Assembly (NCBI GenBank): GCA_964016885.1
Contig: OZ024740.1
Span: 292,888,001-292,952,000, forward strand
Source: Eledone cirrhosa
Lineage: Eukaryota
Direction: 5' to 3'
DNA: 64,000 nt
Shown: piece after piece, positions 3,786 through 50,191 of the stretch
Layout of the letters: every line of letters begins with the position of its first letter
Position numbering within the stretch: the first letter of the stretch is position 1
Program-made: the position numbers and the translations under genes
The notes under the pieces: model-generated
Databases searched by the model: none
The model's input: the letters and a program-made list of their open reading frames with translations, nothing else
Told to the model about the DNA's origin: nothing

Positions 3786-6700
3786 TCGTTTTATTATTTA
3801 AAAAAGTGGTAGACGTAAAAGAGGACCGATTTAAACATGTGGTGTTTAGTTATGTTCTTTTTTTGCTTAGAATTCAAAACATACTAATGTTTATCTCTCC
3901 AGAATACTATCAATCATATGCTGTGAACGATTCAATTTCACTCGTTTCAATCAAAAATATTTGGCATTGTGTCAATGTAAGAAACCAGTTTTTCAATTGA
4001 TATAAATTCACCAATGGCTGCATCGATTGAATATTGAACTACAACTAACTAAAGTTTTAAGTGGATGTTACAGAACGATTCACTGTGCCGATTACCCTCA
4101 GCCATGTCGAGTGTGTGTTGAGGCAACAGTCTCAGTGTTGCTGGGGTATTTGACTACTAGCAACAGTCGGAGGATGTTGAGTTAGTATTGATTATTTTTA
4201 TCCTGTCATCACTATTATACTGTATTGTTTATCGCCAAACTGCTTAACACTCAATGATCTTGTCCACGTTGCTACAGAGTTATGTAATTCATTGCTGTAA
4301 GAAACAGGAGTGCCGTAAAACTGAGAACAGCTTACTTCTCCATTCTAGTTCTCATTTCACCTGATTTCATTGAAATGGTGGGAGTTGAAAGAAATTGGTT
4401 GTATTTTTATGGGAGCTGCAAGATGCATTAAATACTTGCCTTAATGTTTCAACCGTTTGCTTTTATCCCAGTGCTTTTTTATCAACTATAAGTTTTGATA
4501 CGATCTATATTGTGGAAAATTATCAAAGATCTTGCTCCGAACTTCGAAAATAAGGAATAGGAATGAGAGGGACTGTCAGATTACAGAACTCTCTGTCTTA
4601 AACTATACTCGTATATATATTAAAAAGAAAATTGTAAGCGTTTAGTATTTTAATTTTTTCATCATTTTCCTTCACATATATTTAACCAGATAAAGAAAAA
4701 TCTTTTTTACCCTCTACATCGCCTTAAAATAATTATTCACCAACTCAGTTTATTCTTTATCTATCTTTAACTTCCACACTTCATCTCAATGTATAACTAC
4801 TTCACGTTCATAAAACATATCATTCTGTCATTCTGTCATGCTAAACGAGGTTTAGTAATTTTTCATGCTTTTCACAATTTTAATTGTTTACGTATTTATA
4901 AATATACACATACACACACGACTATTTCTCTCTCTCTCTCTCTCTCTCTCTCTCTCTCTCTCTATATATATATATATATATATATATATATATATATATA
5001 TATAAAAAAACCAAAAATCAGTGATGCATCTAGACTCAGTTTATTGCGTGTTACAATTGTTTCGCCTGCAGATAGCTCGAGATATGATCATTGTATGGAT
5101 CTGCCTGATTCTATAACTGCGGGTTCTTCGGACACATTCAATGCTTTCGGAGCAAATTTTCTCACTGGGGTGTTAGCTTCAAAAAACACCTTCAAAAAAC
5201 ATCTTCCACTCTTGTCTTGCCATTGGCTGTTGATTTTCTACGTCATCATAAATTCTGATTGTGAGTATATCACATTGGGGTAAGGACAGAGATATATACA
5301 TGCGTGTGTGTATCTTCTTTGTTGATGTACGTGGATACGGAGGTAATTGGGCACGTATTTGTTGGAATGTATATGAGCCAGTGAGTGTGTGTGTGTGTGT
5401 GTGTGTGTGTGTGTGTATCTGTGGGTGTGTGTGTGTATGTGTGTATATGTACACCTACATAGAGCAGGGTTTGTTTGTACGTTTATGTGCGTGTACATAT
5501 ACATATGTGTAGATATATATATACATGTCTGTATGTATGTGTGTATGTGTGTTTGTGTCTTTGGAAGTGTGTCTGTCCTTGTTGCCTATCAATAAGGACA
5601 GGCGTCTATGTGTGCGTGTGTGTGTCTATGTATATGTCTGTGCGTGTTTGTGTATATGTGCAGATGTACGCGAACGCTGATATGTGTCCTTGTATGAGTG
5701 TAGGTGTGTGTCTGCATGTGTGCGCGTGTGCGTGCGTGTGAGACCGGATGCATGGGGGTATATAGGCAGGCGCCAGTGGACATGTGTTGTTGTGTATATG
5801 GGTGTGGGTGTGTGTGGGGGGGGGTGTAAGAGAGGGAGAGCGTGTGTGTGTATATGTATATGGGTGTGTGAGTTTTCACATGTGTGCGTACATATGTGTA
5901 TGCATATATGTGTATGTGTCTGCGTGTGTGTGTGTGTATGTGTGTTTGTATGTGTATGTGTGGGTATATATTCGCGAGTGTGAGCGGACTTGTGTGATAC
6001 CAAACCCAGTATGAGTCCATTGAAGTGTGTCGTACGGAGAGTAGCTGATGACCAGTGTGGCAGCAAATATTGACCAGAATTTATGATGACGTAGAAAAAC
6101 AACAGCCAATGGCAAGACAAGAGTGGAAGATGTTTTTTGAAGGTGTTTTTTGAAGCTAACACCCCAGTGAGACAATTTGCTCCGAATGCATTGCTTGTGT
6201 CCGAAGAACCCGCAGTTAAAGAATCAGGCAGATCCATACAATGATCATGTCTCGAGCTATCTGTCAGCGAAACAATTGTAACACGCAATAAACTGAGTCT
6301 AGATGCATCAATGATTTTTCGTTTTTTTATATTATATCACACTCTGCTCTGTAAGAACATAGAGTGCTCATCTGGCATATCGCCTATGGAAGCACCATAG
6401 CTACCATTAAACACACGTATATATATATATATATATATATATATATATATATATATATATATATATATATATATATATATGTGTATGTGTGTGTGTGCGT
6501 GTGTGTGTGATGTGTATATAGGGAACGGTCCTCGGCTATAAAAACATCATTTCTGTCAGTTCCCTTGTCATTTATTTGGTTGGCTTGTTTCGGAAACGTA
6601 ACCTTATTACATAAGATGCTACCTGATGATATCGCATGACCGGTTTAATGATTGAACAATCCCGTAGCCATGATCAGTTTTGCTAATGAAGGGCGGTTTA

Positions 6701-7241
6701 AAATATACACCGAACTTCGCATTCTACTACACACGCACACACACACACACACACACACACACACACACACACACACATACCCCCCCCCCCCACACACACA
6801 TACACACACATACATATACGAACTATAGTTAAAACAGTTACTTTTATATTATGTAAAAGTAAACCTGTCTTAAGAATATTTCGTGAATGGAAACTTCGTC
6901 ACACCTAATCGCCAATATTTCGCTGAGAATACACTATTGACGTGGAGTGCATTTGGACTGCTTAAATAGGTTTATCCTCGGGGTGCAAAGCAAACTCCAC
7001 TGATAAACACCCTAATTAACCGCATTAACCTAATTAACACCAATCTTGATGTAGTATATATATATATATAATCTGTATATATATATATATATATATATAT
7101 ATATATATATATATATATATATATATATATAGTAATAATAATAAATTTGAAGACTAAAATCCAAAGAGGGCTCGATAAGGATAAATATATATCAAATATA
7201 TAAGAACCGTAGAGCAAATATTTATTAAAATAACAGATTAA

Positions 7242-7292
7242 AGTTTAAGCAAAGAATCGTTGCTTTCACCCTTAACGGGATCTTCTGAAACT
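7242..7292 (-). ncRNA. Type I hammerhead motif of family B (other copies at ~42514-42560 and ~53951-53985, plus strand)
   Basis: aguuu-CAGAAGA-uCCC-guuaa-GGGu-GAAA-GCAA-cgauucu-UUGC-UU^aaacu. The other two copies carry canonical CUGAAGA. Confidence 0.6.
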
Positions 7293-7711
7293 AACGAAGT
7301 CAATCTGTAAACGCAGAAGTGGATATTTCAAAAAACGTTGCAAACGGAGGAAGACAGGAAGACGATACTTTGGTTCGTGGAAACGTTCCCTGGCAAAGAT
7401 TGACATCAAGATTGACCATATTATTATATATATAACGAAGGAAGTGTGGTAAGGAACCAGGTGGACCATAACGCACCAGAGTACTCGATACTTTGGGTAG
7501 TAGAGTGGGTAATAGGAAAAGAGTCTTTTCCTATTATCCACTCTACTACCCAAAGTATCGAGTACTCTGGTGCGTTATGGTCCACCTGGTTCCTTACCAC
7601 ACTTCCTTCGTTATATATATAATAATAATATTATATATATATAATTATATATATATATATATATTTTATATATATATATAATTATATATATATATATTAT
7701 ATTATATAATA

Positions 7712-48036: not shown

Positions 48037-48221
48037 GTGGATTGGCAGTATCGGTAGAGGGTCGGATGCCATACTTTGCAGTATAGAGTTACAACCCTTT
48101 ATGTTCTGATTTCAAATCCCGCCGTGATTAACTTTGCCTTTCATCCTGACGGAGTCGATGAAATAAGGTACCAGTAATACACTGGGTAATTGCTGGCCTT
48201 GTGCCAAAAGTAGAAACAATT
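48037..48221 (+). mobile_element. Meta-type tRNA SINE
   Basis: Family match. Confidence 0.85.
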
Positions 48222-49261
48222 CTTTTAACTATGTCGGCAAGAATCTAAGAAATAAACACGAGTCATATTTCGCTCATATCCTGATCTCATCAATGAAGTA
48301 CAAACATTATCATATCTACCAACATACTCAATAAAGTCTCATTAAGTAATTCTATAAATGTGTACATTTATAATGTATGTACATCTTTTTGTTGCTATCG
48401 AACAAATAATAATAATACAAGCACAGTATATAATTAACACTGAATTAACTTCAACTTGATATATTAGTCGCGGCACTTATCAGTGAGAAGATTGCTATAT
48501 TTGAAGATGTGTCCGGGAATTGTTGCTTGCCAACATTTTCCATGGCTGCCCTAATTGACAACTGTTTTGTGTTGATACATAACAATCGTCCAGAGGAAAT
48601 TTCCTGTTGCTTTAGTAGCACTTGGTATTGCAAATATAATCGAATAAGTAATTTGTTACATAGAAGAAAGCAGATCTGCAAGGAATCTGATGGATCTCTG
48701 CCAATGGATATCTAACTTACATTCGTCACGTCATAAACGGATGTACTTATATATATACATACACGCACACACTCTCTCTCACACACACACACACAACATA
48801 TTATATATATATATGAGTGTGTGTGCGTGTGCGTGTGTGTGTGTGTGTGTGTGTGTGTGTGTGTGTGTGTGTGTGTGTGTGTGTGTGTGTGTGTGTGTGT
48901 CACTCTGTGTGTATATATGTATATATACATATATATACATTTATATATATATATGAATGTATATATAGTGTATTTGGTAATACACTGTATGCTTAATTAA
49001 AAGCATTTTGAAGACCTTACCGCTTTTTTCAACAAAAAAAGTAAGTGACATAGTCACTACTTTAAAACAATAGCGTAGGGTCTTCAAAATGCTTTTAATT
49101 AAGCATACAGTGTATTACCAAATACACTATATACACATTCATATATACATCGCTATTTAAGAGCACCAATTCCAATTTTCAATTTTTGCTGGACCGGCAA
49201 CCGCTCTGTATAATCAGTTCCTGATTATTAGTGGAATTCTATAAGAATCCAACATTCATAA

Positions 49262-49355
49262 TTTTTCAACAGACAAGGGGAGTGTTAAGCTCTGAGGAAT
49301 ACCAACAGTATGAAGCAGTGATCTGTCAGCTTATCTCCCTTTGTTTGTTGAAAAA
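49262..49355 (+). ncRNA. Type I hammerhead ribozyme motif with long stem I (A15.1G variant)
   Basis: aagcu-CUGAGGA-AUAC-caaca-GUAU-GAAG-CAG-ugau-CUG-UC^agcuu. Stem I extends through uuuuucaacagacaaggggag/cucccuuuguuuguugaaaaa. Confidence 0.8.
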
Positions 49356-50191
49356 AGAAGTGACATAGTCACTACTTTAAGACAATAGCCTAAGGTCTTC
49401 AAAATGCTTTTAATTAAGCATACAGTGTATTACCAAATACACTATATATACATTCATATATACATCGCTATTTCAGAGCACCAATTCTAATATATATATA
49501 TATATATATATATATATATATATATATATATATATATATATATATATATATATATATATATATATATATATATATATATATATAACGAAGGAGGTGTGGT
49601 AAGGAACCAGATGGGCCAGAATACTCAATACTTAGGGTAGTAGAGTGGGTAATAGGAAAATGTTTGACCCCCACGGCAGAGCTCAAGCCGTTTCGACGGC
49701 TATTTTTGGACTAAATTAGAATTTTTAGCGTGGTAAATAAATAGCACATTTATTTACCACACTAAAAATTCTAATTTAGTCCAGAAATAGCCGTCGAAAC
49801 GTCTTGAGGTCTGCCGTCGGGGTAACACATTTTCATATATATATATATATATATAGGAACGAGTAGGACCCCGACGGCTGAGCTCAAGCCGTTTCGACGG
49901 CTAATTCTGGACTAAAATTAGCCGTCGAAACGGCTTGAGCTCAGCCGTCGGGGTCCTACTCGTTCCTATTACCCACTCTACTACCCTAAGTATTGAGTAC
50001 TTTGGTGCGTTATGGTCCATCTGGTTCCTTACCACATTTCCTTCGTTATATATATATATATATATATATATATATATATAAGAATATATATACGTATATT
50101 CACATACATACATAAATACATATGTGTATGTACGTATGCGTGTATGTGCAGTATGTGGTGTAGCTGGTGAATGATTATAAGAGTGAGAAAA

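Follow-up and report, generated by a model that had tools for sequence, protein, structure and literature searches.

A duplicated base-paired element with covarying pairs in the leader of Hydra-clade Penelope-like elements of Eledone cirrhosa

Introduction

Craig et al. (2021, PMC8557442) describe Penelope-like elements (PLEs) of the Hydra clade by their DKT, RWR/RWK and CxCX5C motifs, (TA)n targets and a hammerhead in the pseudo-long terminal repeat (pLTR); the arms are inverted and 5'-truncated, and a tail may be present. Passages of that study, and of the work on the Anolis PLE Poseidon PAc (Frangieh et al. 2024, PMC11167929), present as open questions the selection of RNA by PLEs and the origin of inverted insertions that are tailed on one side only. 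Here we analyse a 64,000-nt stretch of the genome of Eledone cirrhosa (the window; assembly GCA_964016885.1, contig OZ024740.1, positions 292,888,001 to 292,952,000) and describe a short base-paired element, the stem, that occurs twice in the leader of Hydra-clade PLEs. The original prediction, made from the letters of the window, had presented it as a motif shared by unrelated (TA)n-flanked families near their 3' ends, and had compared it with the 3' stem-loops of long interspersed nuclear elements (LINEs).

The stem can be seen in published Hydra-clade sequences, namely in Ajap and Amil consensus sequences and, as a GCCC/GGGC variant, in Crog (PMC8557442). The words "stem-loop" and "hairpin" do not occur in the main text of that study, and its description there includes no leader stem. 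The elements also differ in dimensions: the tails here are 70-130 nt long, as against 30-40 nt, and several 3' untranslated regions here are 1-3 kb. Reverse transcription by purified Poseidon PAc starts internally, at two sites downstream of the hammerhead that delimit the tail; the protein extends both strands of the target and does not depend on hammerhead cleavage, and a binding signal was inferred near the 5' start of the unit (PMC11167929). The Poseidon sites lie within the open reading frame (ORF) and are described there with an AC-rich stem-loop and no defined binding motif, whereas in Hydra elements each site is followed on its 3' side by a copy of the covarying stem, and the leader is non-coding.

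The stringent LINE 3' stem-loops (ZfL2/UnaL2; PMC4176376) likewise combine a conserved stem with a variable loop; recognition by the protein is shown for LINEs and inferred for Hydra. LINEs have one such stem, in the 3' tail; reverse transcription starts downstream of it and copies it. Hydra elements have two, and each stands downstream of the start attributed to it and is not copied from there. The proposed analogy with LINE stem-loops fails because the position differs: two copies stand in the leader, each downstream of an end. The Hydra stem likely resembles the LINE stem-loop as an element recognised by the reverse transcriptase (RT), and not by position or number. Among other systems, non-long terminal repeat retrozymes (bioRxiv 10.64898/2026.07.22.740005) share features with our family D, an ORF-less tandem unit derived from a PLE-like end, but no hammerhead core was found in the family D unit, and both stems are kept. 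A literature search that included PLE and octopus repeat papers (Repbase, Dfam and subscription journals being outside its scope) found no account of the Hydra leader stem, as the original prediction had assumed.

Hepadnavirus reverse transcription is protein-primed. It is triggered by epsilon, a cis-acting RNA stem-loop bound by the RT (PMC10534774). This is an analogy only, as the RT is unrelated to that of Hydra elements and there is no target DNA.

Results

Motif sites in the window and across the genome

We located all 11 sites of the original prediction, with coordinates off by 1-3 nt at most. The strict pattern ACTCT-N-GAGTRC has 8 exact matches in the window, compared with 0.37 +/- 0.63 expected (100 shuffles, none reaching 8). 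These matches are 8 of the 11 sites; the three variants have a TCTCT start (16121), an ACTCC start (25928) or a GAGTATT end (49620). The spacer, given as 10-17 nt, measures 11-18 nt. The sites do lie near a repeat junction, the distance from GAGTRCT to the tract being 35-77 nt rather than 30-75 nt. Additional sites in the window, absent from the prediction, are a G-C version at 21399 (+) and at 7170-7215 (-), and degenerate copies at 42588 and 54013. The 11 sites fall into five families (A, five sites; B, two sites in two subfamilies; C, one; D, two; E, one) and are hence non-independent. We therefore tested enrichment on previously unexamined DNA of the genome.

The held-out sample (1 Mb) was made up of 100 10-kb stretches placed on a grid over the 3.0-Gb genome. 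A (TA)n/(CA)n tract starts 25-90 nt downstream of 25 of the 35 strict matches in this sample, and of 17 of the 23 in the 600 kb of it that were sampled last. The same is true of 6.8% of random positions and of none of the matches to three scrambled patterns (0/8, 0/14 and 0/4; 0/26 in total). A relaxed search of the grid gave 110 matches with more than 12 multi-copy clusters, GCTC/GAGC and ACCC/GGGT forms among them. The sites are not all diverged copies of one family: the tails of 8 window families cannot be aligned beyond the motif, outside which the best local scores are 8-17, with p = 0.01 reached by two B tails only. Nor are the families unrelated, as had been proposed, since A, B, C and a further family, G, are directly tied to Hydra-clade ORFs. 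What is borne out is a conserved base-paired cis-element of PLEs that is enriched near (TA)n junctions.

Leader position and duplication of the stem

The motif had been placed close to the 3' end. We found that it sits in the leader between the hammerhead and the ATG, in two copies, the order being hammerhead, ~45 nt, stem 1, 33-59 nt, stem 2 and ATG. This spacing between the stems was measured in 25 families, and the flanking sequence is unconserved. In full-length copies (loci L199, L149, L241 and L332-L334), the motif is found twice, after the upstream pLTR and before the ATG. By eye, the published Hydra-1_Ajap consensus also has it twice at its 5' start, and the Hydra-2_Ajap and Hydra-2_Amil consensus sequences have one copy behind the hammerhead; Hydra-1_Obim has none within the stretches displayed.

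A metagenome scan yielded 78 Hydra loci, 55 of them with a detectable N-terminus, which form 33 clusters at 70% amino acid identity; a leader of at least 110 nt is present in 30. Two stems were found in 19 of these 30 families, one stem in 7 and none in 4, three of the stem-less families having a U-A pair 1. Shuffled leaders gave 0.04 families with two stems and 0.8 with one, and 3 of 315 coding windows had one. In the supplement of Craig et al. (PMC8557442), the 16 places with the G-C form that were examined are unit boundaries in Hydra elements and, in the Naiad and Chlamys passages, positions inside ORFs or non-terminal-looking spots. For the A-U form, 4 of 22 places are covered, and the clade specificity of the stem is therefore partly tested.

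Pairing and covariation

The fold pairs N-C-U-C-Y-N with N-R-[U-H]-G-A-G-N, followed by ACU or GCU. It comprises four base pairs, a 2-nt 3' bulge, more pairs and then ACU/GCU, and spans 16 to 93 nt. Thus, ACTC and GAGT are paired as foreseen, but around a fixed 2-nt bulge and not as a plain hairpin. Registers with no bulge, a 1-nt bulge or a 3-nt bulge were ruled out, as they show no pairing excess.

Covariation was tested on the pairs unused in picking the sites; the invariance of the bulge U and of the core pairs is no result, because both are built into the search rule. Pairs 1, 5, 6 and 7 covary. Pair 1 is canonical in 65 of 68 stems (G-C 48, A-U 11, U-A 6; 38.2 when shuffled), pair 5 in 67 of 70 (35.0 shuffled), pair 6 in 47 of 70 (21.6) and pair 7 in 39 of 70 (17.6), and the observed pairing was reached by 0 of 5000 shuffles. 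On a tree of 24 families (median protein identity 45%; no published reference or outgroup included), the minimum numbers of changes between canonical pairs at pairs 1, 5, 6 and 7 are 2, 5, 8 and 5 for stem 1 and 1, 1, 5 and 6 for stem 2. The stem is a real, clade-wide, covarying element with a putative function. In L199, L339 and L149, the stem loops have expanded to 70-110 nt, microsatellite-like sequence included, with both arms retained.

Ends of inserted copies and fold-backs

We scored 97 ends in the grid sample and the window. Fifty-three lie before stem 2 (long ends), 38 before stem 1 (short ends) and 6 elsewhere, so that 91 of the 97 are found -2 to 14 nt 5' of a stem, mainly at 5-10 nt. 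The offsets are family-specific, and their sequence usually opens with TA. This count omits sixty rows of I065, whose TA/TG-rich low-complexity loop matches generic repeats, and merges two double-counted family C rows. Among 21 ends in the metagenome loci that are not contig ends, 13 lie 0-13 nt before a stem, 4 lie farther away and 4 have no following stem.

These ends bear on the claim that the motif defines an end 35-77 nt downstream. That end stands 5-10 nt before a second, uncopied stem, and the motif-to-tract distance equals the stem 1-stem 2 spacing minus about 6. The end would thus be set by stem 2, and the visible motif marks a long-end copy whose second stem was not copied. A LINE-like 3' terminal stem-loop specifying an end 30-75 nt downstream, as in the original prediction, would agree with the clustering of the motif-to-tract distance in the grid sample (mainly 40-60 nt). 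We regard it as scarcely credible in view of the spacing relation, of the short-end copies that halt upstream of the motif and are nearly as frequent (38 vs 53), and of the location of the motif in the leader.

The two classes of ends are combined in a regular manner. Both ends could be assigned to a class in 22 inverted pairs: 20 of these are long+short, 2 are long+long and none is short+short (p = 5e-5); six further pairs have one unclassified end. When family A is excluded, 12 of 13 fold-backs are long+short (p = 0.002), with arm lengths that are all different. All loci from the same genome, a query-biased set, include 67 long+short, 6 long+long and 1 short+short pairs. A 190-bp family A fold-back (49855-50046) has an identical internal junction in 25 of its 25 nearest copies (L201-L225) and in 0 of the 100 grid stretches. 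This might reflect either a junction hotspot or the amplification of the whole unit from a source in which stem 2 is retained.

Host elements

In the grid sample, the commonest autonomous PLEs carry the motifs DKT, RWR and CxCX5C; their endonuclease (EN) is C-terminal and lacks CCHH, and (TA)n is their insertion target, as in the Hydra clade. A single ORF encodes the RT and then a C-terminal GIY-YIG EN (791 aa in L191). DKT in place of DKG, together with RWK/RWR, is found in L191 and in the ORFs entered by the leaders of families A, B and G; the latter ORFs have RWR, DKT and YRDD. The CxCX5C linker, the EN without CCHH, and CxxC and CxH near the C-terminus are present in the translations of L065/L057, L031 and L049; for families A and B the EN is not in view. 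Family C ends lie downstream of Hydra-clade ENs in nine loci. In L149, L159, L179 and I065, the ORF is followed (mostly) by a hammerhead and then by the motif. For family E, the site at 21399 and the 23382 subfamily, an ORF link was sought and none was obtained.

Hammerhead cores with helices II and III are predicted by pattern reading in families B and C, in L149 and L159 and in many metagenome loci. In the cores at 6201-6280, 5052-5131 and 22770-22850, the helix II region is ~60 nt long and loop III is a palindromic AATT; the family C core reads CCGAAGA instead of CTGA. Hammerhead helix III of published Hydra elements carries ACTC/GAGT (PMC8557442). The motif itself was ruled out as this helix, as the window motifs have no preceding GAA and stand behind a real core. 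Among the Rfam matches listed (150 of 297 for the window) and in 9 loci, none reaches the gathering score; below the cut-off there is microsatellite or fold-back miRNA noise only, with no hammerhead among the 150 window matches listed. The viral contigs searched contain no relatives.

Family D is an ORF-less tandem unit of ~650 bp that keeps both stems (window 23510-23990 (-); L337, L347 and L376-L400). In 25 loci, stem 2 is not followed by a Hydra ORF, and the unit yielded no hammerhead core. Family D is a candidate hammerhead-free non-autonomous PLE. Among the family B leaders (L360-L375 and L348), some are arranged as short tandem units of ~200 bp (L374 and L375).

Two other origins of the insertions were ruled out. 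Naiad/Chlamys elements, our initial guess, do not agree with an EN that is C-terminal rather than N-terminal. Terminal inverted repeat DNA transposons or miniature inverted-repeat transposable elements (MITEs) do not agree with arms of ~90 to 4200 nt and with a tail difference in 20 of 22 cases.

Discussion

A possible role of the stems in reverse transcription

Inserted copies halt a few bases 5' of either stem; therefore, the stems likely tell the enzyme where to start on the RNA. It seems fairly probable from our analysis that each stem is an RNA binding site that makes the RT of the element start internally, just upstream of it. The template would be a read-through (tandem) RNA, with the stems folding on the sense RNA. 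The RT would bind a stem and start a few bases upstream: 5-9 nt before the stem, a patch containing UA would pair with the 3' end exposed by nicking of the (TA)n target. Each stem would serve the priming of one of the two cut strands, and the two cDNAs, joined head to head, would form an inverted structure tailed on a single side. Support comes by analogy from purified Poseidon PAc, with its two internal initiation sites at the bounds of the tail and its extension of both strands (PMC11167929). The end-setting stem is absent from the product, and it would therefore act on the template or donor and not on the cDNA. We further propose, tentatively, that priming occurs at twin sites, two RTs on tandem stems each priming one strand of the cut (TA)n before the cDNAs are joined. 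This possible arrangement would give the inverted repeat, the one-sided tail and the length of the tail, and two stems without a hammerhead or an ORF might suffice for mobilisation in trans, as in family D.

Several observations weigh against internal starts directed by the stems. Stem 2 of family B is non-canonical, a 4-bp GCAC/GTGC minihelix with a variable 5-nt loop; that of family C is imperfect in the one leader found, and a pattern search for a canonical family C stem 2 gave 0 matches. The covariation counts share ancestry, and pair 1 represents about three events. Lone stems are weak (-2 to -8 kcal/mol), and 2 of 8 predicted minimum-energy folds lack the closing helix. Patterns requiring RCTC after the long end were used to find the A, B and D leaders, so that their offsets are partly built in; no such requirement applied to the G, H149 and I065 leaders. 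Finally, a non-Hydra PLE of the window has two ends ~60 nt apart with the Hydra stem in 0 of 32 ends. Thus, the stem is not a general cause of tails.

RNase P cleaves on the 5' side of a small helix. A nuclease of the host or of the element might cut or trim the RNA 5' of each stem, both products then being copied by end-primed target-primed reverse transcription. Such RNA 3'-end formation is compatible with ends that map 5' of the stems and with the absence of the stems from the product, and RNA-seq read ends fall on initiation sites in the Poseidon study (PMC11167929). We consider it unlikely. The offsets vary by family over 5-10 nt and fall on TA steps, the bases between often not being TA-like. 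Moreover, purified Poseidon protein initiates internally on uncut RNA (PMC11167929), and two separately processed RNAs alone do not predict the pairing of long with short ends.

The folding strand is relevant to another explanation, in which the stems act as DNA: the GIY-YIG EN would recognise an extruded or single-stranded intermediate, cut nearby and resolve the insertion. G-U and A-C counts at pairs 6-8 (16 vs 17) are uninformative on the folding strand and do not favour RNA, which also counts against the stem acting as an RNA binding site. The tail is required for EN recognition of Penelope DNA (earlier work cited in PMC11167929) and was attributed to EN-mediated resolution by Craig et al. 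(PMC8557442), and fold-backs have been suggested to arise by self-priming on an antisense template (PMC3846280). On the other hand, the asymmetric bulge and loops of a few to ~80 nt require a single-stranded fold rather than a duplex site, and the cDNA of a given end does not include the stem that would set this end unless synthesis begins further 3'. A role of the stems as DNA is therefore quite unlikely in our judgement.

The stems could also serve translation, packaging or cis-preference, with the ends being set by nearby UA patches or another cause. Stem 2 is close to the ATG, TA steps are frequent 5-8 nt before the stems (20/50 at -6), and the non-Hydra PLE is two-ended without the stem. 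However, better TA runs elsewhere are unused, as in the family G loop, where runs of 7 and 8 nt hold 0 of 28 ends. Both stems are kept by the ORF-less family D, and ends follow both stems over spacings of 71-132 nt. Such a separate leader role appears very unlikely.

RT starts directed by the stems would account for the inverted PLE architecture with a one-sided tail. The duplicated covarying stem, each copy of which is tied to one class of ends, together with the long+short pairing, provides an exact target for mutagenesis in an existing assay. PLE RTs are the sister group of telomerase, and a putative RNA docking element beside an internal start therefore bears on the origin of the template boundary. 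The motif can also serve as a marker for placing in the Hydra clade many short, unclassified repeats embedded in (TA)n, as well as fold-backs that look like MITEs.

Features of the window

The stems and related features of the window are listed in Table 1.

Table 1. Stems, hammerhead-like cores and insertion arms in the window
Feature	Position	Strand	Remark
Stem 1, A-U form, family C, in long-end tail	6341..6368	+	Family downstream of Hydra-clade EN domains
Hammerhead-like core with a long helix II, family C; stem 1 is 60 nt downstream	6201..6280	+	By eye, compared with core consensus
Short-end inverted arm of the family C insertion above, halting before stem 1	5005..5257	-	
Stem 1, G-C form, 46-nt span, family G	7168..7215	-	Family linked to Hydra ORFs in L049, L241
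Stem 1, family A, left arm of long+long fold-back 7435-7611	7480..7506	-	
Stem 1, family A, right arm of fold-back 7435-7611	7540..7566	+	Family A leader enters Hydra ORF in L332-L334
Stem 1, family D, inside 140-nt tail-only insertion 15827-15967	15862..15891	+	
Stem 1, family A, altered first base, inside 87-nt insertion 16077-16162	16121..16147	-	
G-C form of stem, further family	21399..21425	+	No ORF link
Family C relative with hammerhead core 22770-22850, short end, no stem	22718..22880	-	
Stem 1, family B, after decayed hammerhead 23017-23051	23090..23112	+	Leader of close relative enters Hydra ORF (L348/L354)
Stem 1, second B-like subfamily	23382..23404	+	Subfamily itself without ORF link
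Stem 1, family D	23579..23608	-	
Stem with C-G at pair 5, family E, inside 103-nt insertion	25929..25955	-	No ORF link
Stem 1, family G, mutated right arm	42588..42635	+	
Stem 1, family A, in long+short fold-back 49585-49834	49620..49646	-	
Stem 1, family A, in 190-bp short+long fold-back unit 49855-50046	49975..50001	+	
Stem 1, family G, mutated right arm, in short+long fold-back	54013..54060	+	

A 45-bp tandem array of 5.1 copies (13503-13732) has a unit that includes ATAGAGTAC and has no microsatellite junction; its likeness to the motif is probably due to chance. The non-Hydra PLE (30150-32274; L002-L030) is 5'-truncated and has DKS, a CX4CxxC linker and an inverted long end. A small hairpin with a TTCG loop directly follows its short end and may be the signal of another clade. 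A LINE ORF fragment of 721 aa with RT and PHD finger domains (Pfam) is located at 28086-30251 (-); it holds a (TA)n insertion and is very abundant in the grid sample. We also found tandem dimers of SINE-like (short interspersed nuclear element-like) units at 17729-18064 (178 bp) and 33937-34505 (297 bp), which presumably resemble cephalopod SINEs.

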